Positions 1,206 through 20,411 are shown, counted from the stretch's first letter. The stretch: 64,000 bases of DNA from Phyllosticta citribraziliensis (GCF_038025025.1 NW_027117346.1:186001-250000), one strand, 5' to 3'. Made by a program: numbers and translations. Notes: generated from the sequence alone by a model not told the origin.

Positions 1206-1750
1206 AGTAGTGCAGTGTAGGCGACGACAGAAAAGATGAGGGATGCGGGGATTAAGGATGCAGGGAGGGAGAAAGATATACCCAAACCAAAGCAAACCGT
1301 CAACGGTTGACGGATAGAGAGAGAAATAAGAAATTCGAAATACTTTGACAGAAAGAATGAAGCAATTAAACGATGAAGTTGTAGGATTTTACTGTTTCAG
1401 TGATTAATGGAAGGGGGGAGGGGCGGTCTTGGCGTTTCAGGGGTAAGGGGGAGGCATGAAGGAGGGGAAAAGTGTCTTTCTTTTTTGACTCTCTAGTCTA
1501 TTACTATTACCTATACTGCGTGCTCAAGAGTGGAGAGAAAGGTAAAAAACAGCCGGCGAACGTCCCGTCTCTGTCGCAGGTATGCAGGCAGTCAGTCACC
1601 TAGTGTGCGGTTGGTACAAAAGCCGTACATCCAACCCACCAGAAACTCGCCACCGCAGCAGCCAAACCTCAAAGCCACTGCTTCTCCTTCTCTTCCCCTG
1701 CTCAAAGTCACAAGTCAAACCGCGGACCGCGGACCACCCTCACCCTCCTC

Positions 1751-3450
1751 CTAGCCAACATGACTGCCTGTATCATACGGGCCCGTCCCCTCCAAGACTG
1801 ACAGCGCCAGCGCTCGCGCCTCCGTCTTCCACGCATCGGATTCCTCGGCCGTGGAGTCTGCTCCCTTCTCTTCTTCCTGCTCTCCCTCTGCGGTCTGCTG
1901 CGCCTCTTGCTCCTCGGCATGGCTACTGCTCCGGCCCTCCAACGCTCCGAACGCTTGGTCGCGCCACCACACCGTCTGCGTCTCTGGGTCGGCGATCAGT
2001 GACGACCTTGGCGGAGGAGCGGTCACATGGATCTCGGGGATGTTGCGCGCGTGTGCTGGGAGGTTGTCGTTGGAAGAGGGGGTGAAGGTGGTGCTGTGGT
2101 TGTGGTAGACGGCGCCGTGGCGGTGGGAGTGGGAGTGGTCGGTGGGTTGGGGCGCGGGCGTGCTTGGGCGGTCGTCTCTCTCTTTCTGCCATGGATGGGC
2201 TGGAAGGGCTGCGAAATCTTCGCCGTCAATTCCAGCAACAGAGCCACAGCTTCCTTTCGTGGAGAAGTATTGACGCTCTTGACCAAAGCCACTCACCTCC
2301 ACACGACCATCACCTCGCTGACCATTGTCAGAAGCACGCAAAAACGCAACGCGGACATCCACCTGCTTCTTCTCGAGTTCCACCAGCGAAGCCGGCGGCA
2401 GAGCCGAGAGGCCTTGCACCAAGCCCGACTGAACGGGACTGCTCGACGGCTTGCGGGGGTCGATGCTGAGGGAGACCTGCGAGGCGAATCGACTCATGCG
2501 CTTGAACGTGTCCCTGAGATTGCTGCTGCTTTCCGTCCTCGGCAAATCGTGCTCGCTTGCTCGGAGGCTCGCCATGCTGAACATCTTCTTGACCCTGAGA
2601 TTGCTGCTGCTTTCCTTCCGCGGCAAGTCGTGCTCGCTCGTCTTGAGGCTCGCCCTGCTGAACATCCTCTTTACCTTGCGCAACGCCTGCGTGCTCTTAC
2701 TCTTCGCCAAACCACCCCTGGACTCGACGACGGTGGAAAGGGTGACGGATGAGGCGTTGGACGCCTGGGTTTGAGAGAGGCGCGACCAGGGCGCAGCGGC
2801 GTCGTTGCGGAGGTGCTCGGCGGAGAGCGTGACGTTGTTCACATGGTCTCGGATGCTGGCGAGGCAGTCGATCATCTGCTTCTCCGCGGGGGAGGAGGGG
2901 GCGCGCTGTTTTGCGGCGGTCTTGAAGGCGATACATGCCGCGAAGCAGCTCTGGAAGGCTAGGGCAGTGAGGAGGTTGACTTCGCATCCCTCCAACGTCG
3001 GCAAGGTCCTGTTCCTGGTGTTAGACAGACGAGAATCTTCAACGGGGAAAGCTTTGCTTACTTCGCCTTCGCCTCGAAAATCTCCCTCCTCTCCTCCTCG
3101 CCAATCCGCGCCGTCATCGGGATGTCGTCGATGGTCAGGCCGAGCTTGATGGCCAGCAGCCGGTTGCGACGGTGCCAGGACGCCAAAATCTTGACAAGAA
3201 TGTCGGCATAGCATTCAAACTTGTCAGCAATCTCGACCGTGGCTTTGCGCTGCAGCTTTGGGCGCAAGTCGAAATGCAGGAGGCGCGCCGCCCGGACGAG
3301 CTCCGCCTGGAACATGTCTGGCCAGAGGAGACGGTTGGCGCTCTGCAGAACGGCCTGGAACTGCAGGATCGCTTGGATCTGCTTGCTGGCCTCGCGTTCG
3401 AGGGCCGTCATCTCCGCGTGGACTGGGGAGAACGATTCGAGGGCGCCCAT
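1751..3450 (-). CDS. Uncharacterised tandem-family protein, copy 1 (about 550 aa; exons 3450-3062 and 3014-1751; alternative start at 3516)
   Basis: ORFs 3058-3717 and 1751-3214 join in frame across a GTAAGC..CTAAC..CAG intron (3061-3015), giving ...EAKAK-NRTLPTLEGCEVN. Motifs ANRLLWPDMFQ, LSALPPASLVELE and WWRDQAFGALEG are shared with copies 2-5. Confidence 0.8.
2512..2673 (-). repeat. In-frame 81-bp (27-aa) tandem duplication inside copy 1
   Basis: VKRMFSRASLKTSEHDLPRKESSSNLR / VKKMFSMASLRASEHDLPRTESSSNLR; the nucleotide anchor ccctgagattgctgctgctttcc occurs at 2512 and 2593. Confidence 0.9.
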
Positions 3451-3765
3451 CTTGAGCGTTGGTGGGACGCGGAGATGCGAGGGTTGTGGAGGAAGCGTTT
3501 GGCCAAGCACCTGCATGAACTTTATCGGAGACGGCGCGGATCTCCAGTAGCAGTTAGTAGGAAAGATCACAGAGCTGTGTTGTTTTGATTTTCTGGGTGG
3601 GTGACCGCCGAGGATGTCGTGCGGCGGGAGGTTGAAGATCAAGATCATGCGAATCAGTTGCGCACCATTTCGCCGTATCTGCCCTGGGAGTACACTTAGG
3701 CAAATCAAAGTGAGCATGGAAGAGTAGTTTACGCTTAATTGTCTTGTCTGCTTCGCAGTGCTTGA

Positions 3766-3954
3766 TTGAACATGTCGGTGATGTTTGGAAATGTGCGGAT
3801 CAAGAAGACTATCTTATTTTTCATTACTACCCACGAAAGGACCTAGACCAACTCCAATTCTTGAACATCTTGGTGATGTTTGGAAAGGTGCGGATCAAGA
3901 AGGCTATCTTTTTTTCATTACTTCCCACGAAAGGACCAAGACCAACGCCAATTC
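3766..3954. repeat. Imperfect ~95-bp tandem duplication (2 units) between copies 2 and 1
   Basis: ttgaacat..ggtgatgtttggaaa.gtgcggatcaagaag.ctatctt..cccacgaaaggacc.agaccaac.ccaattc begins at 3766 and again at 3861. Confidence 0.9.
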
Positions 3955-4165
3955 TCCCGCTCATAATGCCCGAATCCTTGTCTTTCTTGATCGAAGAGAG
4001 GATCAATTCGACCACCAGCAACTCCTTTCGTTCCAGCTTCGTTGCGGGAACTTTCCACAATGTCCGACTCGAATATGAAAGAAACAAAAACAAACGCCAA
4101 ACCATAATGGTACATGCATCATCAGCCCAGCTTGAGCATGCCACCTCCATTGGCTCAAGACCCGC

Positions 4166-5881
4166 TCAAAGCTGGCGTCCCAAGCGCTCCATCTCGTCGG
4201 GGCCGAAGCTGAGCTTCGAGAAGTCGAGATTTCCGGCACCGCCGTCCTGGCCATCGTTGCCCTCCAGCAAGGCCAATGCCTTCGCCTTCGCCAGCTCCCT
4301 CCTCTTCACCACCTCCTCCTCGGTGAGCTCCTCCTCCTGGTCTTCTTCCTCAGCTGAGTCACCACCTTCCTCTCCGTCGCGGCCAGCCTCCAAGTCCTGG
4401 AGGGCACGCTTGCGCCACCACGATTGAGCAGCCTCCGGGTCTTCGTTCGAGTCTGGCTGGCTCGAATGGTCGGGAACAGAAGCCTCAAGAATCTCCTGCT
4501 CAAGTTGGGTGAGCTCCTCTACCTCACCGTCGTCGTCCTCGAAGCGCTGGTCGATGATCTGCTTCCGGTTCGGAACGCTCTCGTGGTTGTTGCTGTCGTG
4601 GTCGTGGTAGCTGAGGCTCTCCTCGCTGGTGCTCTGGGGATTGCTCGTTTGCTCGTAGTCAGGCTGCTTGGTGGCCGTTCGGCGAGGGCTCTCGAAGACG
4701 GGACCGCTGTCGTGCCTGACCTCATTCGAACTCAATGTCGGTCGCTGGCTCGAATTGCTGACGATTCGAATCGTCTCGGCTTGAGAGAGCTGCGACTGTC
4801 GGCGGACGTTCTCGTGGTGCCTTGCGACCTCTCTCTGTTGCTGCTCAAGCACAGGGAGGGGCGCTGGTGGGAAGACAGCCAGGCGAGGACGCTTGCCTGC
4901 TTCCGAGAGTCCAAGACTGAGACGCGGGTTGGGCAAGTCTAATTTGTTGTCGTCTTCGTCGGTCTTCGTGGTGGCGTCGCTGTCCTTCTTCGCATTGCCC
5001 TTGAACTTGTTGATAAGGGACTTGAAGGGACGTTTGGAGCGGCTTGACTTGTCCTCCTTCTCCTCCTGACGCCGCCTTTCCTCCTCTGCCTCGATCCCTG
5101 CACTGATCTTGGACACATCTTGCCAGGCTTTGACTGTATCCCTGCTGAGCTGCTCGGCCGAAAAGGCTACATCTTCAAAGCGGTCCTGCACCATGTGGAA
5201 GCAGGATTGAATTGATTGAGCTGCCGCAGCAATACGAGGCAGGTCGTGCATTGATTCTCGGGTTGACTGGAATGGAGAGGCCACGCAATCAACAAAGTAG
5301 ACGTGAAGGCGCTGGGCGGCAGCAAAGTTCAATTCGCATCCATTGATGGTCGGAAGGCGCCTGTGTTGATGTCAACGCCGATCAATCAAAAAGAAGGAAC
5401 GCAAAGTAAACACTTACAGCATCTTTTCCTTGAAAGGAACAGCTTCCTGCAGCGTGCTTGGGAGGTTCTTGACGTTAATTGAGACCAGATCTCCGCTGAT
5501 ATTCTGGTTCGATCGGGTCCACAGGGCCAAAATATCGGTGACGGCGGCGCTGTGGTGTTGGATCTTGTTGACGGTCTCTGGTCTCGCGCCTTGCGCCAAC
5601 GCCATTCTGAGCTCAACATGCACCAGGCGAACTGCCCTGATGATCTCACGTTGAAAGCCGTCAGAAAAAAGCAGACGATTCGCAAGGGACGCGATCGCTT
5701 GGATCCTTGCCTCGGCACGTGGAGTCAGAAGTGACACTCGGTCCTGCAGGAGAGAGTTGACTTCGCTCTCTGAAAGGGAGGGCCGGGTGGAGGGAGCGGC
5801 GGGAGCGTGGTGAGATTGTTCGATGGGAATGCCTTCCTCATCGCGAGAGTAGAGGGATGAAGTAGGCCTTGGGTTCTCCAT
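4166..5881 (-). CDS. Uncharacterised tandem-family protein, copy 2 (about 552 aa; exons 5881-5418 and 5360-4166)
   Basis: Start MENPRPTSSLYSRDEEG. GTAAGT..TTGAC..CAG intron 5417-5361 gives KEKML-RLPTINGCELN. Contains ANRLLFSDGFQ, LAVFPPAPLPVLE, WWRKRALQDLEAG, an acidic tract and ALALLEG. Confidence 0.82.
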
Positions 5882-6328
5882 CTCGAAGTTGAAGGTTTGA
5901 AGTGTAGTGAAGAAAAGAGGGGAGATGGTAATTGGTGCCGTGTGAAGCGTTGATGGCACCGGGGACGCGAGTTGGCAAGCTTGAAAGAGGTGGTGGAAGA
6001 TTGGGGTTGAAGAAAGGTTGAGATGGTGCAGAGGAAGGTGCAGCAGCGGTGGAATTGGATTTTGGCACTGTGGGTGGAGGTCCAGCCGCGGCGGCGACCA
6101 AAAGCGTTGGTGGTGTTAATTCTGGTCAGGTCGAGTAAAGCACTCCAACATTGTCAACAAACCATGCACCACCGCAGATACGTAGCTCGTCGACAAACCC
6201 ATCGCACTCCATCATGCCTGCACAGGAGTCTCCCTTGAACCATTGATTTTACTCGGAAGAGACTACTTAGGACGTCCTCAATCGAAACTCCCTTCCTTCT
6301 TACCCATCCAAGCTTTCAGTGCCACTGT

Positions 6329-6595
6329 TGTTGGTGGTCCTGTGTAACAACACCAAGCAGTCTCCCATTACGTCATCTCAGCTACAGTTCGCCTAGATAA
6401 CTACAGCTTATCCAGACAACAACTTACTACTTTAGTTAAGATATACTTATCTATCAGCTTCACACATCTTAACAAGTTTAGGACTTATTAGTAGTTAGCA
6501 CCAGCTACTACTCCCCCTAGTAGTTTTAGTAATATATAGATAGCTCTTAGAGTAGCCTTAAATAGAGTCTTTAGTTCTCTTATCTTACTTTATCA
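6329..6595 (+). repeat. 5' LTR (267 bp, TG...CA)
   Basis: Starts TGTTGGTGGTCC and ends TTTATCA; colinear with 11251-11517. Confidence 0.92.
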
Positions 6596-9500
6596 GGTTA
6601 TAAGCCCTTATATTACATATATAAATCACTTATCTAGCTTATTTTAGTATTATACTATAATACCATCTATACAATTATTACTAATAGTTATTTTATTATT
6701 TTATTATTTTATCCCTTATTATCTCACATAATTCCTACTCTTTAGTAAATTTATTAGTATTATCTATCTCTATAACTCTAAGTAATATACTAATAGTTAT
6801 TACCTTTACTATAACTTTACCTTCCCTTCCTCCCTTATTATCTAGTAGTTTAGGCTTTACCACTACCTTATCTTCTATACCAGCTAAGCAGGCTAAGGCT
6901 AAAGAAGAGGTAGACCTAACTATAAATAATAGTAAGTTTAGTATCCCTTTAAAGAATATCTAGCTACTTAAAGGCCCTACTAACTAGGTAACCTTTAAGA
7001 TAATAGTTAAGATAAGGCTTAATCTATTCTATTATACCTATCTACTTAAGGATAAGCTAAAAAATACTACTAATTATAAGAAGGATATATATATTATCTA
7101 CTAATTTATAATAATTATTACACTTCCTATTATAATAGTACTATAGGGGCATACCAGTTTAGCTCACTCTATATAGTAGAAGCTTTATAATATATATAAT
7201 ACTAAGGGTATCCTCTCTAAGGCTAATATTATTAAGGACTTTATCTTCTATTAATATAGTAATTTTATAATAGTAAAGGAATTCTATAATACCCTATATA
7301 AATAAAGGTAAGCCTATATTAGCTATATCTAATAGTAAGTTAAGGACTAGATTCTCTATATTCTACTCCTAGAAAACTTATAGAATAATATTCCTATCTA
7401 GTATATAACTTAGCATATAAATTAGTATAATAAGAAGGAGACACCTAAGTTTAAGGATCTTTTCTATACTATAACTAATAAGATTAAATATACTAGTAAG
7501 AATAGTACTATAGCTCTTACTATTTATACTAGTTAGCAGTCTACTAAGCAGTCTAAGTCTAACCATACCACCTATAATTACTATAGAAAGAAGGGGCATA
7601 TTAAGGCTAAGTATAGCTATCTTTACCTTAAATACCATCCTACCTATTAGAAGCCAGTATTAGGGGTATTCTACATACTAGATAATTAAGTCTCTAAACT
7701 ACTAATAGTAGTAATAGTAATAATAATATTAATAACTAACCCTCTAGTATAAGGTATAAACTACTTTACCACCCTATACCTATATCTAGCTTTAATAAAG
7801 GATAAATAGATTATTAATACTAGGGCTAACACCTACTATATACTAAATTTAACTAAGCTAATAAACTACTTATAGTTTATACAGCTAGTCTAGGTATATA
7901 GTTTAGGTATAGCAATAGCTATTAGCTATAGTAATACTATACTCTACTATCCTATAAATAGTATAGTCAACACTCTTATAATAGAGGGTATTCTATATAT
8001 TCTAGTACTAATAGTTAGTCTTATCTTAGCTTTAAAACTTAAGTAGAAGGGACTATACCTAGATTAGCTTACCTCTATATTATAAATATAAAACTATAGA
8101 ATAGCTATTATAGCTTACCCTAATAGTTTAGGGGTAAATATTCTAATAGTTATTAATAATAATTATATAGTATAAGTATTTACTATAGCAACTCCTCCTA
8201 TAGTAATATATAAGATATAGTACTAGTAATTAGGGTATATCTATACTGGCGCGCTTAATAAGCTCTAGTACTAGGGATAACTTATTATTACTAGTAACTA
8301 AGACTTCTATTATAAATCCTACTATATAGCTAAGTCCTACTAGATAGTATTATATAAACTAATACCTTAAGTAGACACGCCCTTTAGACGCGTCTATATT
8401 AATATATTTAGACTACTTATAGTCAGCCATAATAGCTACTATTAGGGGGTGGTATTTATAGATAACTACTTATATCTATAATACTTATTAGTTATAAAGA
8501 CTAAGGGCAACACCTTTAATAGTATTTAAAACTTTAATAAATAGACTAAAACCTAGTTCTAATATAAGATCTAAGCCCTCTAAATAGATAATAGCATAGA
8601 GTTTAGCGGCTAAAAGCTGCTAGTATAGGTAAAGATAGAGGGTATTAAGGTTAAAAAGATAGCACTATACTTACCTAAGTAAAATAGTATTAGTAAGTTA
8701 TCTATATACCTTATTACTAGTATAGCCTACTCTATAAGTATCGCGTTAAATACACCTTAATTATTATAGATAGAAGCTTATTAATATATAGTATATCTTC
8801 TTAACTATCTTCCTACTTATATACTTAATAGTAAGATACCAGTTAACGTTTTTAATAATACTATTAGTAGGTATAAGGATGTCTAGTTACTAGTACTAGT
8901 CTTTAGTATTACTATATATACTTATATCCTAGCTAAGAAGCGTCTTAAGAGCACTAAATTTAATATAAGAGTAAAGAAAGGATAGTTTATTAGCTATAAC
9001 TATAAGTATATCTTCTAGGTATATCTCCCTTAAATAAACTAGGTTATCTATACTTAGGACGTATATTTTAGACCTCCTTAGTAGCTAGACTTAATAGCTA
9101 CTATAAATAATATAGAAGATAGAAAAGTTAAGAATAGTAATAATAAGATACTTATTATATATCTTATATTAAAAATAGTTTAAGATACTCTTAAAGGCAA
9201 TACTAAAGTAATCTATAACATAGTAGAATAAGCAATTAAAGTAGTAGAGAGGTCTAATATAGGTAGTATAGATATTAGTAGTAGAGGTAAGGAGGACGCG
9301 TTTATAGATATTATACTATTAGTAGATAAAATAGATTAGATTAATATCTCTCTAGCTAATAAATATACTAGATCTAATAATTTAGTACTTACTAACCTAA
9401 CTTTAACCCTACTACTACCCTTACTATCTCTATTACCTATACCTACTCTACTACTAATAGCACTATTATAATACCCTTAGTAGATTTATACTAAGATATA

Positions 9501-11250
9501 ATTCTTTAATAAGAAATATAGTTTAGATAATACTTAACCTCCTTAACTATCTACTTACTATATATATATCTTTACTACTATAGAAAATACTACTTATTAC
9601 TAATAAGATGCCATCCCTACTAATAAGGTTCTACCTTACTTATAGTATAAGGCCCTTATAGGGCTAAAATCTATCTATTAGAGACCCTCTATAGATAAGT
9701 AGATATAGGAGTTAACTAATACTAGCACCTTTAAAGAGACTAACTACCTATTAGATAGCTCTTAGGTACTACTACTATAATAGGTCTAGATCTATAAGCT
9801 TAATAAGCTAGGTAAGAAGGTTATCTATAAGAGCTACATTATAGTTTTAGGTAATCTTTAATATAAGGGATTTAATATATCTAAAGTATTATTACTAGTT
9901 ATTATATTTCCTACTTTTATACTATTTTTAGTAATTAACATCTATTATTACCTATTTTATAAGTAAGGGGATATTAAGACAGCCTTCCTTAATATACTAC
10001 TAAAAGACCTAGTCTATACCTATATACCTCCTAGATACTAGGTTCTATAATAAGTTTAGCATCTCTAAAGAGCCTTATACAGCTTATACTAGTTACTACT
10101 TACTTAGTTTTAGTACCTCTATAATTTCTTATACTACCTAGGTTTCTACTCTCTCCCTTTAAAACCCTATATTATAAGATACTAGGACAAGCTTATATTT
10201 ATCCTTATCTATATTAATAATCTCTATATTACTACTAAAACTAAGTCTAAAGTTAATAAAATCATCTTACTACTTAATACTAAGATCTACTTTAAAGATA
10301 TAGGCTAACTATATTACTTCCTTAGTCTTTATATTAATTAATATATAAATAGCATAATTATACTATCCTAAGGTAGATATATTTAAAATATTCTTATATA
10401 GTTTAGTATAAGTAATACTACACGCGTCCTTATACTAATAGATTCCTATAAATTACATATATATAATAGCAAGAACGACCTAGACTATTAATAGCTTTAT
10501 AGTAAGATTATTAGCTTACTTATATAGTATATAATAAGATACCACCTAGCTATTCTTTTTCCTACTACTTATCTCTTATAATACACCTATAACCTATTAA
10601 ATAAACACCTTACTACTGCTTACTAAGTCCTTTAATACTTATAGGGTATATATAATTATAGAATCATTCTATACCCTAGTAATAATAGCACTCTTAGCTT
10701 ATAAATCTATATAGATGCCACTTTTACTAATAATCTAGATACTTATTAGTCCTTATTAGGCTATATTATTATAGCTTTAGGCAGTTTACTATATATAAAG
10801 AGTAGGAGATAGAAGCTTATTAGTATATCTATAATAGAAGCTAAGTTTATTAACCTCACTCCTACTATTAAATAAGCCATCTAGATAACTTAAGTTCTTA
10901 CTAAAATAGGTTATAAGGGCCCTAATACTTAACTAATCTAGCTCTATAATAATAACAAGAACGCCATCTAATTTACTAATAGTATAGAGTTTAATACTAC
11001 TATAAAACACATTAATCTATACTACTAGTATATTAAGCAGGTAGTTATAGATAGAACTACAACTATCTCTTATATCTCTACTAATAAGATAATTACAGAC
11101 GGGCTTACTAAAGTATTAGTAATAGTTAAGTACTACTGCTTTTATAACCTTATTAGGTATAGACTAATATAGTAAGTTTTCTATTTAGTTAATACAACTA
11201 CTTATATATCTACTCTACTATAACTATCTCTTTTCTTATCCTAGGGGGTA

Positions 11251-11517
11251 TATTAGTAGTCCTATATAATAATACTAAGTAGTCTCCTATTACATCATCT
11301 CAGCTATAGTTTACCTAGATAACTATAGCTTATCCAGACAATAACTTACTACTTTAGTTAAGATACACTTATCTATTAGCTTCGCGCGTCTTAATAAGTT
11401 CAGGACTTATCAGTAGTTAGCACCAGCTACTACTCCCCCTAGCGGTTTTAGCAGTATATAGATAGCTCTCAGAGTAGCCTCAAATGGAGTCTTCAGTTCT
11501 CTCATCTTACTTCATTA
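11251..11517 (+). repeat. 3' LTR (267 bp; termini mutated to TA...TA)
   Basis: Starts TATTAGTAGTCC (transition version of TGTTGGTGGTCC), ends TTCATTA, followed by TSD ACTGT. The differences I could see from the 5' LTR are transitions. Confidence 0.92.
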
Positions 11518-11571
11518 ACTGTTGAGTTTCCTCTTCTTTTCTTCATGCTCGGTCTCACAGTCCTTCGCGTT

Positions 11572-11949
11572 TTAGGCCTTTGATGTGATCTTCGCCGCGT
11601 TCGCGTTCGCGTTCGCTTTCTCTCCGACCCTGACCGCCTCCCAGTCTTCTTGAACCCACTCCAAGATTGCGTTCTCGCCCACCTCATCAAGTTTCCGGAC
11701 CTAAGGGATCTTCTCCTCGTCGGGCACTGGAGTATCGTTGGACTTCAGCTCGTCATTGTGAACAGAAACGATCCGGAGGAGTCCCTTGGTGGTTGTCTTC
11801 GAGCTTGGGCGATTATACTGATCCAAGGGGGACCTCTATAATGCGAAAGCCATGCTTGAAGAAAGCTCCACCAACAGTGACCGCCCAATGGGCCAGAATG
11901 TGCACTTTAAGAACCAAGCTTGAAACTGATGAACTCCTTCCTTCAACAT
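11572..11949 (-). pseudogene. Possible degenerate 125-codon ORF interrupted by two in-frame TAG codons
   Basis: ATG at 11949 to TAA at 11572 in one frame, interrupted only by TAG at 11838-11836 and 11703-11701. Translation looks protein-like (…DEVGENAILEWVQEDWEAVRVGE…). No homology recognised. Confidence 0.25.
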
Positions 11950-12097
11950 TCAGAGTAGGATATACACTCTTTATAATTGCAGAAACCATTGAGTAAGTAA
12001 ACATGACTCTGGTATTTAAACTGCCTGGAAGAACAACCCCTACAGCTCTTCTTCAGTCCCGACCAGCACGAAACAGAAGCCCAAGTCGCCGCCCTCA

Positions 12098-13534
12098 TTA
12101 GCGACACCTCCGAGCGCTACCGCTGTCAGAACAGCTATCGGCGTCACCTTCCAACATCTCCAGAGCCTCCGCAACATCCCGGGCCTTCTTTTCGGCGGCC
12201 TCCTCCTCGGAAGACTCCTCCCCCCCCTCCTCCTCCTCCTCCTCCTCACAATCCTCCCACTCCCACTCGCTATCCTCGTCTGGCTCTTGTCCCTCCAAGT
12301 CCTGCAGGGCGCGTTCGCGCCACCAAGAGCGAGTTCCAGAAGCCTCGGGTGATTCGGCGCGCTTGGCTTCAAGTCTCTGGACGAACACTCGATTGATGTT
12401 TCGTTCGAGCTCTGAGAGAACTCCCGGCCGTCCCAAATTGACGCTGTGGTGCTCTCCGTTGTGACTGGCGACGCTCACCGAGTCGTGTCTTTCTTCGGGA
12501 ACAGCCTGCTGGGTGGTCTCGTGCTGTGCTTCGAGGTTGACTAGAGAAGTTGGCGGTAGGGCTGAAAGAGGTGAAAAAGCGTCTGCGTAGAACATTCCCG
12601 GTGGATAACGTCTCTGGGCTGCATCGTGAGGAGCAGATTCCGAGGCTTTAGCGGGAGAATCGGTATTGGCCTTGCGCCCGCTGTCGTCCTGAACGATGTC
12701 GTCCTTCCTGGAATTGCGCTTGGAAAACAAATTCTTGAACGTGAATTTTCCAATGCGCTGCTTCTCTTTGGCTCTTTTGTTTACCTCCTGGCTGGCACGA
12801 GAAGCTAAATACAAAGACCTCTCCGAAATGGCTTTCCAAGACGCAGCTACATCTTTGCTGGCTTGTTCCGTCGAAAAGGCGACATCTTCCAAACGATCTC
12901 TGGTCGCGAGAAGACAGTTGATGACTCGAATTTCTGTGGGCGTAGAGTGGGCAGATCCGTGTCCAGCATGTTTGGCAGCAGAGCAGAGGTTGACGACAGA
13001 GTCCACGAAGAAGCTTCGCATACCTTGGATGGCCTCAACGTTGACCTCACAGCCAGTGATTGTTGGCAAAGGCCTATTACGTTTCTGATCAGAACACGTC
13101 TTGAAAGAAGCAGGCGCAAGAAGGAAAGTAGTCATTGCTTACTGAATCCTGGTATTTGGATCAAGCTGCGAGACAGCAGAGATGTTTGCTTCCCTCATCA
13201 AGCGCGCATCCACGCTGATGCGCTGGTTGCGACGCGTCCAAGCGGTCAGAATGTCGACAACCTTCTTGCTGAGGGACTCGATCTTCTGGAGAGTCTCCTC
13301 GATGAGTCCATTCCGCAGCAAGCCGTGCATTTGGTTGAGCGCTTCGATTACTTCGAGGATTTGGGCTTGGAAGCCATCTGCCCAGAGCAGCCGCTTGACA
13401 GTTCGTACGACAGACTGGAGGAGTTGGTCGGCGACGCTGCTGACAGGTTGGACCTGGAACTGTTCGGCAGGGCTGATCGAATTGCCGTCTTCGTCCCTGG
13501 AGTAGACGGAAGAGGTGGGACGGGGGGCTTCCAT
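12098..13534 (-). CDS. Uncharacterised tandem-family protein, copy 3 (about 455 aa; exons 13534-13143 and 13073-12098)
   Basis: Start MEAPRPTSSVYSRDEDG. GTAAGC..TAG intron 13142-13074 gives TRIQ-PLPTITGCEVN. Contains VKRLLWADGFQ, LSALPPTSLVNLE, WWRERALQDLEG, poly-E and ALEMLEG. Confidence 0.8.
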
Positions 13535-14080
13535 TGCTGATAGTGCTAGGTACGAAGAGTTGAAAGGGCAGATATGGAGATGATCGAAAGTTGAAAGGTG
13601 AGAGGTTCAAGAGAGCAGGTGGTGGATGCAAGAAGATGGAGGTTGGATTTGGTCTTGAAGCGCAACAACATTCGAGAAGACAAGATGGACGCGTTGGTGC
13701 CGCATCTTTGGGACGAATGTGAACCAAAGGGAAACCGTATGAAAGTAGGATCTTGGCAAAACGCGTCGACCAATCGCGTTCACACTGACTTTGGAAAGTC
13801 ATCGACATTGTTTAAGTCTGAAAGGTATTGTTGCGCCCTTGTCAACCTCTCACAGCTGTCAATTGCATTGTCGTCGAATTTGAGCAAAGAGAGACCAAGA
13901 ATCTACTTTGGAAGCCAGAGGCACGCAACTTTGAGATTTGATTGTATTGAATGGACAACTATGACTCCATCCCAACCATGTGCGCGTAGACAGTGCAAGA
14001 GCAGGACAGTAATTTTGATTGAGACTACTTACGACGAAGCCTGATTCCGTCCAAGAGATCCTCCGCTCCCTCCAGCCAAG

Positions 14081-15207
14081 CTATCCTGGACCAGCTGCAC
14101 TCGTCGACGGCTTGTTCATCTCTGCTATCGAAGCTCTCGTCCTCTGCAAAATCCCCGAGACGCTGTCATGTCTGCTCAGCGGCGGATCAGCTTCCTGCAT
14201 CTTGCGCTTGCCTTGCTGCTGGACTGGCCCGAACCGCGCGCAGACCCCTTGTTGTTGCTGCTGCAGTTCTGCAAGTGAAACCGGAGGCAGCGCAGCAAGG
14301 CCAGGCTGAGTGCCTGCTTCTGAGATCCCCAGGACGTATTGGCGAAGGAGGTCGAGTCGTTGGGTGTTGGCTTGAGTCACTCGTTCGATGCCCTTGAGCT
14401 CTTCAGGGCGCTGTTTGCTGAGAAGGCCTTTGAGAGGACCCAAGACTCGTTCGCGCTTCGCTTGCTTCGCCGCTGTTTTCTTGAGCTGTCGCTCGAGGAC
14501 CTCCTGCTCCTCCTTCTCGGCGGTGATCTCCACCAGGAAACCAAGCAAAGACTGGCGTACTCCGGCTGCGTCGTGGCAAGCCTGCTTTGCTGAGGATGCA
14601 ACGTCGGCGGAACGCTTCCGAAGGCCTGAAAGACACGTGCGGATCCGCTGTGCAGCGTCGAGGTCGAAGGCGGCGTTGTTGTTGAAGACAGCTGTGGAGA
14701 ACGGAGCCGCAATCTGGTTGGCGATGTACTGCTCGGTCTTCTGCGCGGTTGCGATGTTGGCTTCGCAGCCGGAGGCGGTCGGCAAACTCCTATGAAGTTG
14801 TTAGACATCGAAGCAAGAAGTATGCTTATGGAAACTCACTGCAGCTCGAACTCGAAGGTGAGCGCCTTCGCTTCAGGCTCTGGACTCTTCAGGTCGATGA
14901 ACTGTGTGCGCCGGCTGATGAGCTGGCTCCTCACAGTCCAAGCAGCAAGAATGCCCATTATGGCATCGGCGCAGCGTTCGATTTTCTCGCAGGCCTCAAC
15001 TGTCGCCCCGAGCTGCAGCAGTGGGCGGAGCTCGTCGTGGAGGAGATGCGTGGCGCGGAGGATTTCCGCCTCGAAGCTGTCCTCCCAGCTCAGGCAGTAG
15101 GCGTCCTGCCAGATTGCTTGGACAGCCTTCTGAGCGGCGGTGTCGGTCTGCATGGCAGAGCTGGCGACGTTGGTCTTGCCGAAAGAGGAAGTGGAAGAAG
15201 AAGCCAT
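14081..15207 (-). CDS. Uncharacterised tandem-family protein, copy 4 (about 358 aa, C-terminally truncated; exons 15207-14840 and 14789-14081)
   Basis: GTGAGT..CTAAC..TAG intron 14839-14790 gives FELQ-SLPTASGCEAN. Contains AYCLSWEDSFEAEILRA..LHDELR and LAALPPVSLAELQ. The TAG stop is followed in frame by LGWRER, a relic of the WWRxR motif. Confidence 0.75.
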
Positions 15208-16383
15208 GGTGTAGTCGTAATGGTGGTTGTAGGAGAGATTCAGAGTAAAGATTATAGAAGAGATGAAGAGGTAGAGACGTCTAAAGGTCGGCGGTTGCAA
15301 AAAAGCTCGAGAGAGGGAGATTGCAGTAGTGGTGGTGGTGTTGTTCAGAAGTGTCAACAGAGGACGACCATTCTGCCAACACCGTGGTCTGTGCGCCCCA
15401 AGCCAACCCATTCACTTTCACTTCATACCACACCACCAAGCTCTGTTGCCGTTCTCGAGTAGGCTCGAGGACCCGAATATACAGCCAAAAATAGGTTGGC
15501 AGTCAGAAATTAACACCGTGTGCCATGCGCCCAGAAACTCGACCCAGACTCGGCGACGGCCACGAAGCCCCTGACCCATGCCAAAGTTGAGCATAGGGCC
15601 TTCGTCTTTGTAAGCTTTTGCACCCAGCGCCTCCAATACGTAGCTTGTGGTGCGGTCATGGCGAGGACCTTCGACGAGCATGTCGATATCACCGTGGTCG
15701 GCTTTCAACATGGCTGCTTCAGCACTCGCTGGCGACGTTCTCATAAATCTGAGTAAGGATGGCGGCATGCCCAGACTCCAGGTCCCCAAATAGGGCGGTT
15801 TGAATGCGAGGGCCCTCCAATTCATCAACCATGAAGGCGTTTCCACCCATGGTTCGGCGCAGGGAATTTCAGGGGTCAGGTCGCCATCCCGACTTCTTTC
15901 AAAACGATCATATAGAGCGGTTCTTGGCTCAAACAGAGGCGATGAGGGAGACTTTGGGAGTCTTCTCACGCGGGGGTGGTCTATTTACTATGGAAGGGGT
16001 GGAAACGAATATACAATGGTGTTGTTTGGAGTCAATGCCGGCTGCGAAGCGGACACCTTTGTATGCTCTTCGGACAAAGACAGTGGTTCAAAGGCGCAGT
16101 AATGAGGCGTGAAAGCGAATTTATGAAGGGTCAAGCTGGAAGGTATTCGCAATGAGGAAATTCGATTTGTAAAGACGAAGTCGGTGTGGTAGGCCACCAA
16201 CGAATTAACACTGACGAGTGTTATTTTGAATCCTGACTCCATGCCCAAAACGCCTGGCTGTAACGAGCCCAACTTCCGTGTAAACCCAAAGAAATTTCCA
16301 ACTCCCGCTTCCTGATCCAATGTCTTGATGTACATGCCCAAAACGCCGCCCAATGCCCTGTCCCTCATGCCAGTCCACTGCCC

Positions 16384-17689
16384 TCAGAGCCCACCCTCCA
16401 AGTCCGCCAGAGCCTTTTTCCGCCACCAAGACTTCCTCCTCTGTGGATCCAGCTCGACGTCTTCATCGTCGTCGTTGAGCGTGGAGCCTGCCATGGCGTC
16501 GGCGAGGCGAGATCCGGCGGCCGCAAAGTCAGTCGCAGCAACTTGTTCGCTTTGGCGTTGCCTGCTCGGGGTCTGCTCCTGGTGGTGTCCTGCGCCGGAG
16601 TCTTGTCGGGAGCTCGCGAACTGCTGGTTGATCTCTTTTTGGCGGGCTTGGAGCTCGTCAAGTGAGGCAGGCGGCAGCGCATCGAGGGCCGGATGCTCTC
16701 CCGGCTTGGTGAGACCCATGACGTGCTGGGGGTTGAAAGGTGCCGAGATTTGCAGTGGGCTGTCCTCCTCCTCGCTCTTCGCCTTTCCCTTGCCTTTGAA
16801 GATGGCGCCGATCTTCTTTATGGCCTTGTCCCTCTTGCGTTCGGTGCCGGCCTCGGTTTGGGATTCCGGGTCCGGGCTCGAGGAGACCGCCGCTGGCTGG
16901 TTGATCGGGATGAGGTCGAAAGCAAACTTTGGCCCCATGGCCTGGCTGCCAAATTCTTGCCAGACTGAGGTCGCATCGTCGAGGAGGACCTTTGCCGTGG
17001 CCTTCACCTCGTTGAAGCCGTCGCGGAGCTGGAGCAGCAGAGTGCGCATATGTCGCTCAGCGGGGACGAGGTGCCGAACTTCCTCGGGTGTTGACGCGGA
17101 AGGCATAAAGTTGAAGTCAACTTCTTCAGCGTAGTAAAGCTGGAATGCCGAGATGGTGGCAACGTTCTGCGCGCAACCCGCGATGGATGGCAGGGTCCTT
17201 TGAGAATGTCAGATCATGAGCTCCAAACGATGGAAGGGTGAAGCAAGTCAAGGTAGTTACTTACGGCATGATCTTCTTCAACTCGAAGATCGCATGATTG
17301 CAGCCCTCGCTGCTGGCCTGCGAGATCGCGCTCAAAGTGTCGAGGTTGACCTTGGAAACGTCTTCGCTGAGAGCACGGTTGCGGCCTGCCCAGGTCCCCA
17401 GTGTCCTGAGCAGCAGATTGCAGCAGTAGTCGATCTTGGCGATCGTGCTGCTGCGTCCTCCGACTCTGAGGACCGGACGAAGGTCGCAGTGGAGGACCCA
17501 GACGGCTTGGATGATGCTCCGCTGGAAGCCGCCGGCCCAGAGGAGACGATTCGCAGCCGTGATGGCCGCTCCGATGCGCATGTCCGCGCGGGTGTCGAAG
17601 ATCGATGGCTGGTACACCGTCGGGAGCACCTCGACCTTGCCGGCCTCGTCGCGAGGGATACCGGAGGAGGAACGGCGAGAGTTCGACAT
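16384..17689 (-). CDS. Uncharacterised tandem-family protein, copy 5 (about 412 aa; exons 17689-17265 and 17197-16384)
   Basis: GTAAGT..CTGAC..AAG intron 17264-17198 gives KKIMP-TLPSIAGCAQN. Contains ANRLLWAGGFQ, LDALPPASLDELQ and WWRKKALADLEG. Confidence 0.8.
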
Positions 17690-20411
17690 TGTGAGAGAGG
17701 GAGAGGGTGGAGATGCGTATAAAGGGTAGGAAGGTTGAGGGTAGAGGTGTATAGAACGAAAAGGGCTTGAGAAGTAGTGCGAGGAGTTCGAGAGACGTGC
17801 AAGCTGTGATCTGGAAAACCGAGAGAGAAAGCTTGAAGGTTGAAAGTTTGGAAGTTCGGGATGGAGGAGGAGGAGGAAAGAAAAACAACAATCGCAGAAG
17901 AGGTCCAATATCACAACCACCGCGGGCGGTGGGTCTGTGCGTTCACTTCACGCCGTTCGCTTCCATGCTCCTCGTCGACCGCCCACGTCCAAAAGAGGAC
18001 AAGCCTTCTTTCAGTCTGCCAGAAGGCTCGGCTCCAAAGCCAGAACGCAGTATACGCCGTGGATAATGACACCTAGCTGCCCTGAGGGCGTGTGAGGAAG
18101 GTAGGTCTCTATACTCACTGTTCTCCTCGTCTGCTCCGCTGTCCGGTTGGTGTTTATGGCCTTCCAGGACGCCAAATCTTGCGGTGCCGTTTTTCCCTTG
18201 TAGCCTAGCCTCTACCTTCTGCTGACTCTCTTCCTGCTCTTCCAGTGCTTGTCGTTCACAGTCCACGGCCTCACAGCCCACTGCGCCGTGAAATCATCCA
18301 TTGCTCTTGTCACCGACTTCGCCAGCTCAGCAGCCCGTCCTCCTACACCACTGGACATTGCAAGATGAGCTCGCCGCCATCCTTCGGAACAGCCAGCCAG
18401 ACAGCGAGCAAAGCCAGCAAAACAGAGCGTAGAAAGCCGCCGCCGTCGAGCACACCCCCCAAAACAACACGTCCAAAACGCCCGTACAATTTCCACGGAA
18501 CGACGCAGAAAGACGGCCTGCTTGGTTCTGCTTGGGCTTGTTCTGCGTTTCGAGGCCGCCGCTGAAGTCCAAGTCAATACTCAACCTTACGCCAAGGGGT
18601 ACAGATACACTTACGGCTTCTATTCCCCTCGCCATCTTTTGCTCTTCTCGTCCCATTCTGTCACAAAGCAAAGCAAACGCGAACGCGAACGCAAGCCTCT
18701 GAAGAAAAAGTCGGTCAAAAGCAGCAAGGACGGCAAAACGCCAGTACATCGCGCAAGAAACCCAGGAATTCAACAGCCGCAGAACCACCTCCTGGCGCAG
18801 TCAAAGCTAGCCGCACAGGAAAGAAAGAGTGGCGGAAGGGAAGGCAATGAAGAACGGAAAGACAAGAGAAGAGGAGGAAAACGGGGAAGCTAGACAAGTC
18901 GCACCCGAAGTACCCATGGGCATCTCGATGGCTGAGAATGCGGCGATTGGAACATAAGCTGTCGTATGCGACATCCATGATGCGTGATGCAAAAAAAGGC
19001 AGAGGGGGAAGGGGGGAGAGCAGTTTATATACCCACGTAGCTTACCCTCAACGCTCAACCCGCGCCCGCCAAACCGACTCCAAACCGGCTGCGAAAACAG
19101 ACGGTAAACGACATGCGAGCGCGAGAAACAACGGACACACACAAGACAGACAAGCAAGAAACGAAACGAATGGCAAAGCCAACGCAATCTTCAGAACCCA
19201 ACGCAGCAAGTGAGATGGCCAAACAATTACGCCAGACAATACAAGTAGTCAACCGACGCACAATAGCAAAGAGCAAAGAGAAGACGCAAAGGTCAAAGAA
19301 AGAGGCTGTGGTGTGGTAGGCAGACGAGAAGCTTGATAAGAGGAGGTACCACCTACATACGAATAAGCGTACATACAAGCGTGTAGGCAGGCAGGTAGGT
19401 AGGCAGGATACGCAGGACACTGCACCGCTTCGCCCACTCACTCACGCACATAAGCCCAACCGCAACACCAACCTGACGCAACAATCTCGCGCAACAATCT
19501 CGCGAAGCAGCCAAGCAGCCAAGCAGGCCCAAACGCCGCATGAATCAAACGCCGCATGAATCAAGGAAGCGAGAAAGAGATACCTTACTCACTTACTCAC
19601 TGACTCCGTAGCCGTCCATCTACGGTCTAAATAGCACACCCGATTACACCTTAGACACACGCCTCAGAAAACCGAACGCCAAACCCAATTCCAGCGCCAA
19701 ACCCAATCGAATCCAACGCTAACGCCATGTCAATGCAGCGAGCGCCAAATGGGAAAGCAGCAAAGCTGAGCACGAAGACGAAGAAGAAGAAGAGGAAGAA
19801 GAAGTTTTGTTTAGCGTGCGTACAGCGTACGGCATACGCGAGTGACGAGCTGCTCTTCCTGCTGTACCGCCTCCAGCCATCGTCAACCTCAAGAGGTGGT
19901 CGGAAAAGGGAGCTGGAGCTAGCGAGCCAGCCAGCGCTCGAGAAATACGAGTAGCGGTACCGGTGATGGCAGGTAGGAGCAAGGAATAGACACTCCAGAG
20001 CCAGCCAGCGTAGGTATGCAGGCAGTGCGAGGCGAGGGAGGCGAGGCGACTAGTATAGGCAGAGGGAGTTCTCTGCGTCGACGGGCGGAAAAGCGCAAGA
20101 GGCGCGCGGGAGAAAGACCAACCCGTTCGATTCGATATCGAAGAGCGGAGGAGCGGAGGAGCGTTTGCGGCGTGCTGTGAGGTAGTGATGTGGTGGCAGC
20201 AAAGTGCTCGAAGGCAGCGTCGACGAGCCAAGCAGCGCGGATCCCATCCGCATCTCGATGGCCTCCGGCCAACGCGTCAAGGCTTTTCCTTTTCCTTGAC
20301 GCCAAAGAATGCGGAACAAAGGACCAAGCACCTTGCGCGAGTGTCCGTCTCCAAAAGATCCATGCCAACGACCAAAAGAAGCGGGGGGTAGCCAAATCCC
20401 ACGAACGGAGC

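Follow-up and report, generated by a model that had tools for sequence, protein, structure and literature searches.

A 64,000-nucleotide stretch of the Phyllosticta citribraziliensis genome (GCF_038025025.1 NW_027117346.1:186001-250000; hereafter the window, with positions counted from its first letter) carries between 1751 and 17689 an array of five minus-strand genes that are real paralogs of one protein family, related far beyond chance. We refer to these as g1 to g5 in order of increasing coordinate (Table 1). The reading we favour, to which we give about an even chance, is that they are five anciently duplicated genes of a single lineage-restricted and undescribed family, encoding soluble, non-enzymatic adaptor-like proteins that have become specialised through the loss of tail modules. 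A lineage-specific adaptor family was the second option offered in the original prediction for this region; its first, an analogy with fungal conflict loci such as allorecognition genes or the meiotic drivers wtf and Spok, is made less likely by the age of the gene lineages, the domain and transmembrane searches and the ordinary neighbouring genes described below.

The five genes appear merely as fragments in a listing of open reading frames (ORFs). Removal of one intron per gene, with a GT[AG][AG]G[TC] donor, an AG acceptor and a length of 40-130 nucleotides (nt), yields a single open frame from ATG to stop in 5/5 cases, and every solution is a phase 2 intron. This reproduces to the nucleotide the five two-exon genes of the original prediction. 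The introns are 50-69 nt long with GTAAGY or GTGAGT donors and AG acceptors, and in four of them a CTRAY word resembling a branch site precedes the acceptor by 15-19 nt; alternative acceptors are available in g1 (intron 3015-3061) and g4 (intron 14787-14839). In all five genes the intron splits the codon located two residues N-terminal to the L of LP(T/S)xxGC, and this common position and phase suggest that the copies arose by DNA duplication rather than by retroposition.

Table 1. Coordinates and properties of the five genes and of other features in the window (nt, nucleotides; aa, amino acids; LTR, long terminal repeat; RIP, repeat-induced point mutation).
Feature	Coordinates	Strand	Structure	Product	Nearest match (identity)	Further matches (identity)
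g1	1751..3450	minus	exon 1 3062-3450; intron 3009-3061 (53 nt, phase 2); exon 2 1751-3008	548 aa	P0004 (76%)	P0007, P0008 (38-40%)
g2	4166..5881	minus	exon 1 5418-5881; intron 5361-5417 (57 nt, phase 2); exon 2 4166-5360	552 aa	P0003 (76%)	P0005, P0006 (55%)
g3	12098..13534	minus	exon 1 13143-13534; intron 13074-13142 (69 nt, phase 2); exon 2 12098-13073	455 aa	P0015 (49%)	P0011 (41%)
g4	14081..15207	minus	exon 1 14840-15207; intron 14790-14839 (50 nt, phase 2); exon 2 14081-14789	358 aa	P0012 (76%)	P0014 (48%)
g5	16384..17689	minus	exon 1 17265-17689; intron 17198-17264 (67 nt, phase 2); exon 2 16384-17197	412 aa	P0010 (84%)	P0017 (35%)
Tandem duplication inside g1	2509..2670	minus	81-nt unit, two copies 86% alike; doubles the basic patch (KVKRMFSRASL / VKKMFSMASL)			
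Putative RIP-degraded LTR-retrotransposon-like relic	6331..11515	+	terminal repeats 6331-6593 and 11253-11515; between g2 and g3			
Segment like X1 contig	11518..11810		~85% like the 7533-nt contig; joints 11554>11602 and 11810>15654; loose end 11518			
Second segment like the same X1 contig	15654..15883		~85% alike			
Repeated pairs found by self-blastn			LTR pair; 81-89-nt duplication inside g1; 95-nt tandem duplication 3766-3955; weak pair in AT-rich block			

The phase 2 intron predicted at one position throughout the array is borne out by public proteins as well as by the splice models. Public protein P0002 (P. citribraziliensis) is identical, letter for letter, to the g1 model with the 53-nt intron, and the g2 and g3 junctions are read across by P0001 and P0009, respectively; for g4 the junction is based on sequence signals together with P0012 and P0014, orthologues that cross it at the same place. 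Two public sequencing runs (X1 and X2, of unrecorded type) contain parts of the stretch, and their contigs were compared with positions 1700-17800. A 2396-nt X1 contig fits 16145-17196 and 17264-17800 without a single differing letter and skips 67 nt corresponding to the predicted g5 intron; the ends of the skipped segment are CT..AC on the plus strand, i.e. GT..AG on the strand of g5. The natural reading is that this contig represents a spliced transcript, the type of the run being a guess. Small low-depth contig pieces with zero or one differing letter correspond to parts of g1 (3208-3418), g2 (4433-4667 and 5500-5676, the latter covered by an X2 contig with no differing letters) and g3 (13147-13310, a 164-nt contig in exon 1, also without differences). 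The GC content at third codon positions (GC3) is 0.62-0.78 in the five genes, compared with 0.60-0.71 in five conserved neighbouring genes.

Two further observations concern the ends of these models. The intron-less g5 contig continues for 808 letters past 17800 (record letters 1-807) and so reaches ~900 nt upstream of the g5 ATG, reflecting either a long leader or an overlap with an upstream transcript. The public model of g2, P0001 (460 aa), begins at an internal methionine, so that the first helices of the bundle described below are cut off; the 92 codons upstream of its start (5605-5881) are open and conserved in P0003, P0005 and P0006, all of which align from residue 1 of the longer g2 model.

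The five proteins are 25-35% identical in pairwise comparisons, with BLASTP alignments of 25-34% identity and E values from 1e-22 to 1e-37. Self-blastn of the window detects no DNA similarity between one copy and another, and finds just the four repeated pairs shown in Table 1. A family hidden Markov model (HMM) matches 10 of the 1391 six-frame ORFs in the window, and these are the ten exons; the HMM was built with these same sequences, and the informative part is that nothing else in the window matches, from which it follows that the window holds exactly five copies and no relics. The five motifs that had been listed as common architecture (an exon-1 helical domain with RLLW, the LPxxxGC junction and second helical block, a basic amphipathic patch, LxALPPxSLxxL, and WWRxxALxxLE) are all present in the array, with the amendment that the last is missing from g4 and from its two orthologues.

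In a quick maximum-likelihood tree (IQ-TREE; 26 rows, nine short fragments being left out) each window copy falls in its own clade together with its orthologues, with support of 99-100 in the Shimodaira-Hasegawa-like approximate likelihood ratio test, and therefore the five lineages predate the split of the species concerned. Because every copy has its orthologues, and there is neither DNA similarity between copies nor any extra copy or relic in the window, sequence comparison indicates that the array is most likely old and maintained, and not in the birth-and-death turnover that had been proposed for it. The nearest matches that carry a name are from Phyllosticta citrichinensis. According to a comparative-genomics paper, P. 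citribraziliensis, a citrus endophyte known from Brazil, has its closest relative in P. citrichinensis, and P. capitalensis is the least related (PMC9073689). The description of the family as fast-diverging is in keeping with identities of mostly 76-84% to the nearest orthologues, which, where they carry a name, belong to this close relative; relative to the nearest orthologue the bundles are 79-93% and the tails 73-78% identical, and relative to the next orthologue the bundles are 38-57% identical. Divergence thus appears fast for such close species.

Structure prediction suggests that the N-terminal part of each protein folds into a bundle of ~200 residues with six long helices, spanning both exons. 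In an AlphaFold2 model of P0002 (g1; 12-row alignment) the bundle occupies residues ~10-225, with a predicted local distance difference test score (pLDDT) mostly of 80-96, and pLDDT in the tail is below 50 except in helices at the ALPP (up to 87), WWR and ALALSVLEG motifs. In a model of P0010, the orthologue of g5 (31-row alignment; predicted template modelling score 0.63), the bundle has pLDDT of 90-98, residues 300-335 reach 80-94, and the last helix 86. There are just two beta elements in the P0010 model, at 41-43 (within the exon-1 RLLW motif) and 306-308 (right before LPxxSL); since a strand needs a partner, the model sets the tail motif against the bundle, and such docking would explain the joint conservation of motifs lying far apart. 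A scan with a 19-residue Kyte-Doolittle window shows no signal-like N-terminus and no conserved hydrophobic or transmembrane stretch in the family; g1 alone exceeds 1.6, in a buried helix of the bundle. The N-termini are polar (MEAPRPTSSVYSRDEDG...), with pLDDT below 50 at residues 1-8 of P0002 and at 1-5 and 9-14 of P0010.

On the reading we favour, the genes were copied as DNA with intron position and phase kept, and each product would be a soluble intracellular protein without enzyme signatures, composed of an N-terminal peptide, the ~200-residue bundle and a largely disordered tail. Two pieces of the tail are predicted to return to the bundle, namely the LxALPPxSLxxLE strand and helix and the DPExxxWWRxRALxxLEG helix, and the linkers between them would loop out and carry a basic amphipathic helix; those of the g5 type would also carry an ISxP..H..G peptide. 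Such a protein could act as an adaptor or regulator by way of the protein (and perhaps also membrane) contacts made by the looped-out peptides.

The family had been described as unrecognised, and searches with sequences, profiles and models agree. A Pfam-A scan of the ten exon translations gives no family at cut-off (best Mis12, 16.5 bits against a cut-off of 25.7), nor does a scan of 15 family proteins (best RIX1, 24.3 against 27.4). PDB sequence searches with four profiles return nothing below an E value of 0.016, and the rows returned fall in charged segments of low complexity; Foldseek with the P0002 and P0010 models finds nothing at E<=1e-3. In the ESM Atlas there is no usable feature match for P0002, and all structure rows have template modelling scores <=0.43. 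The best scores of P0029 (0.81, 0.76 and 0.75) are below the level that shuffled proteins also reach; a lead to Etd1, which made up 61% of one ESM Atlas cluster, was dropped.

A whole-library fold aligner ranks the middle helical domain of the MukF/JetA kleisins (3rpu_A, 1t98_B, 9qe0_E) first for both models, with Z scores for P0002 of 12.4 (root-mean-square deviation 5.7, 177 residues aligned) and 11.2 (deviation 3.1, 148 aligned), and for P0010 of 10.3 and 10.1; unrelated helical bundles reach a Z of ~13 with this aligner. MukF is a bacterial SMC-complex protein, and MukF-type kleisins bind the SMC head and neck through N- and C-terminal winged-helix domains. The family proteins differ in that identity is 8-10%, the scores are within the range of unrelated bundles (under ~13), and winged-helix domains are absent from both models, which consist of helices, disorder and a two-strand bridge, the match covering the middle helical domain only. 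We read this likeness of models as a common arrangement, not kinship. Syntaxin-type closed bundles and SPX domains also resemble the models in having long antiparallel helices with a later segment folding back (Z 7.5-8.5), but these scores are at background level, and Pfam shows neither a SNARE nor an SPX match for the family, which also lacks a membrane anchor.

All seven proteins recovered in an initial profile search were named Phyllosticta. A 12-row profile run with HMMER against 1.84 billion representative proteins gave 28 matches at E<=1e-3, of which 23 reach E<=1e-10 and 15 reach E<=1e-30, and 33 family proteins were collected in all, including three that are the window's own. The nine named proteins comprise eight from Phyllosticta and one, MPH_12038, from Macrophomina phaseolina, for which a literature search found no paper. 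Further searches with distant and intermediate alignments returned two and one proteins, respectively, adding two names and no wider range; from these protein matches we consider the family provisionally to be restricted to the Botryosphaeriales. The Macrophomina-type proteins are longer (517-1038 aa) and keep the bundle, the IPTExGAECN junction motif, the ISxP peptide and a form of the WWR motif reading EDPELxxxWYRAxALRRLEGGPP. No fused or multidomain forms are present among the 28 HMMER matches, the longest of which, at 1038 aa, has no Pfam domain.

The age, fold and range of the family bear on whether the array is a conflict locus, a set of allorecognition or cell-death executioners or of killer and antidote genes in which the tail would hold the bundle shut and the basic amphipathic helix, once opened, would attack membranes. 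Divergence that is fast even in the folded domain and a tandem array with a transposon relic inside it are both expected of such a locus, and the predicted closed bundle with its amphipathic basic helix would fit, by analogy, the logic of autoinhibited helical-bundle executioners. We nevertheless regard a conflict locus as unlikely, because the five lineages are old, each with its orthologues and without recent copies or relics; there is no HeLo, HET or NACHT match in Pfam (E<=1 for the ten exons, E<=0.1 for 15 family proteins); the HMMER matches include no fused long forms; the N-terminus is polar and disordered, not hydrophobic; a conserved transmembrane stretch is absent; and the neighbours are ordinary genes.

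The HeLo and HELL cell-death domains and MLKL-type bundles are alike in combining an all-helical N-terminal domain with a regulatory tail, and the fungal ones in being fast-evolving and lineage-restricted. The bundle predicted here is larger, however, with ~200 residues and six helices against the four helices of the MLKL type, and the family shows no Pfam match to these domains, no prion-forming motif and, at its polar, disordered N-terminus, no membrane-targeting hydrophobic helix of the HeLo type. Association with a NOD-like receptor, either by fusion or by adjacency, was found neither among the 28 HMMER matches nor in 15 large neighbouring ORFs. Solved HeLo and MLKL structures do not appear in the top 50 rows of two whole-library fold searches, which does not exclude them as matches. 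The wtf drivers are multi-pass membrane proteins and Spok proteins have nuclease and kinase domains; the family has no conserved transmembrane stretch and no Pfam domain. More specifically, the genes could encode a new autoinhibited executioner or incompatibility factor of the Botryosphaeriales, with a clamp of the ALPP and WWR motifs that a trigger releases, so freeing the basic helix, and with the paralogs forming a recognition or guard set; on the evidence above we rate this as less likely still, and very improbable.

The looped-out part of the tail could have a different kind of partner. The consensus of the CRIB motif, I-S-x-P-x(2-4)-F-x-H-x-x-H-V-G, begins with residues also found in the family, and the proteins could be effector-like scaffolds of Rho GTPases (Cdc42/Rac) in which the basic patch, followed after 10-40 residues by ISxP(F/S/Y)(N/D)xxH.xG, constitutes a basic region with a degenerate CRIB; this arrangement would be ancestral, with the g5 type retaining it and g1-g4 having lost it. 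Twelve of the 35 family rows contain ISxP (g5, P0010, P0013, P0017-P0020 and the Macrophomina-type P0024, P0027, P0029, P0030 and P0033); the I, S, P and downstream G are invariant in seven aligned g5-type segments, and a histidine stands at +8 from the I in six of the seven (alignment read by eye), the register of the first CRIB histidine. The region is disordered in the P0010 model, as a free peptide motif would be. WASP has a basic region immediately ahead of its CRIB residues I238, P241, F244, H246, H249, V250 and G251 (PMC6166713). The family thus resembles such effectors in its basic patch before I-S-x-P...H...G in disorder and in apparent autoinhibition by intramolecular docking, but has the first half of the consensus only, lacking F at +6 and H-V-G at +11 to +13. 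The seven segments give no match to the PBD profile (PF00786) in Pfam at E<=10, a PDB profile search gives no matches, and of the window copies g1-g4 do not carry the motif, leaving g5 as the one that does. The effectors PAK, Gic2 and Ste20 share with WASP the basic region and CRIB, and we think it very improbable that the family belongs with them.

The tails also distinguish the five lineages from one another, and each difference is common to the orthologues of the copy concerned. The full module set, including a C-terminal FSFxPDExExxGRxL, is present in g2. A short N-terminal peptide, PxSSVYSRDEDG, is kept in g2, g3 and partly g5, and is lost in g1. The g5 protein ends just after WWRKKALADLEGG, and g5 types stop directly after LEGG; g4 consists of bundle, basic patch and ALPP piece only, without the WWR motif and acidic tail, and both this short tail and the junction recur in its orthologues P0012 and P0014. 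We infer that the copies became specialised by this loss of modules, which would have left g2 full, g1 without its N-terminal peptide, g3 with a decayed C-terminal end, g5 stopping after LEGG and g4 minimal. Within g1, the 81-nt unit of the basic patch is duplicated (Table 1) and the nearest orthologue, P0004, has one copy of it; the duplication is therefore a recent lineage-specific change in a conserved motif.

Reading of the g3 3' end in three frames shows that, compared with the orthologue P0011, the C-terminal motif has fallen out of frame. The segment 12098-12170 reads LEGDADSCSDSGSARRCR-stop, with a relic of the C-terminal motif (..GGVANEGGDLGFCF..) in another frame. Public model P0009 joins the end of g3 to this relic via a 31-nt intron, which, given the minimum size of introns, we judge implausibly short to be real; a frameshift relative to P0011 seems more likely. 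Such a frameshift, bridged in public by an implausible intron alone, and the loss from g4 of the whole C-terminal half of its tail would also be seen if the array were partly decaying, with some copies at work (g5, perhaps g1 and g2) and g3 and g4 drifting as remnants that are open by chance. Partial decay seems to us improbable, since the frames of g3 and g4 are still long and open, their splice signals canonical and their GC3 normal; their bundles are 54-79% identical to those of their orthologues, like the other copies; a 164-nt contig matches g3 exon 1 with no differing letters; and the truncation of g4 is common to P0012 and P0014 and is thus old and tolerated.

Between g2 and g3 there is a 5.2-kb block with 26% GC and a 263-nt direct repeat at either end. 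The two repeats are 87% alike, nearly all of their differences being transitions (C/T and G/A), and a purine run stands just before the right-hand one. Over 6200-11500 the RIP indices are 1.77 (TpA/ApT) and 0.26 ((CpA+TpG)/(ApC+GpT)), compared with 0.32-0.45 and 1.35-1.37 in gene stretches; the usual thresholds are about 0.89 and 1.03. A Pfam scan of 41 of the 55 ORF pieces in the block gives no match and no reverse-transcriptase remnant. We read the block as a probable RIP-degraded LTR retrotransposon, the terminal repeats alone pointing to a retrotransposon; the array had been called transposon-associated, and the relic indeed sits inside it.

Two segments flanking g3 and g4 (Table 1) resemble a single 7533-nt X1 contig (depth 811), in which both lie in one orientation. 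Between them the contig has 702 letters peculiar to it, in place of the 3843 nt with g3 and g4 in the window. Leftwards from 11518, where the LTR relic ends, the contig continues unlike the window. It represents either a transcribed repeat family with relics flanking g3-g4, or a related locus without these two genes. The 715 nt that separate the g2 stop from the g1 start include the 95-nt tandem duplication, whose two copies are 92% alike. An 8-mer, TCGACGAG, occurs on either strand within 600 nt upstream of g2, g3, g4 and g5 (four of the five regions), at 6186-6193, 14100-14107, 15671-15678 and 17971-17978, out of nine sites in the whole window; shuffled controls have on average 0.025 words (maximum 1) common to four of five upstream regions. 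The positions of the 8-mer vary from -289 to -573, and one site is inside the g4 coding sequence.

Beyond the array, an open frame at 636-1205 on the plus strand encodes a low-complexity protein rich in Gly, Pro and His (GGFGGPGGPG and HHGHH runs) with repeats spaced by 9 nt and no Pfam match. From 20885 to 55379 the window contains ordinary genes, i.e. those for a Mid1 channel component, an AMP-binding enzyme, an aspartyl protease, a cytochrome P450, a JmjC/PHD protein and a calcineurin-like phosphoesterase. No NACHT, NB-ARC or HET domain was found in the 15 neighbouring ORFs scanned, out of 31 non-family ORFs with 230 aa or more.

Several points weigh against reading the array as an old adaptor family. 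The term adaptor is the default for a helical bundle with a disordered tail, and a bundle that itself changes quickly would also fit a protein in an arms race. The contact between tail and bundle comes from one AlphaFold2 model without a contact map, and the P0002 model has no such strands; a complex prediction of the P0010 bundle (1-225) with its tail (296-340) in trans, in which alignments were unused and controls were not included, scored 0.00 and carries no weight either way. Contig cover is limited to parts of g1, g2, g3 and g5, with a junction-spanning contig for g5 only, and the family may range more widely, the coverage of fungal proteomes in the searched library being uncertain.

The analysis of the five genes provides the family, recorded publicly as 'hypothetical protein', with correct models of its genes and with a first account of its structure and evolution. 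It constitutes a marker of the Botryosphaeriales, an order with important plant pathogens and endophytes, and a clear-cut case of an old tandem array in which different tail modules have been lost from different copies. The array also illustrates that being tandem, divergent and next to a transposon is insufficient to call a conflict locus. If the tail truly clamps the bundle, the family would provide a simple new type of autoinhibited scaffold.

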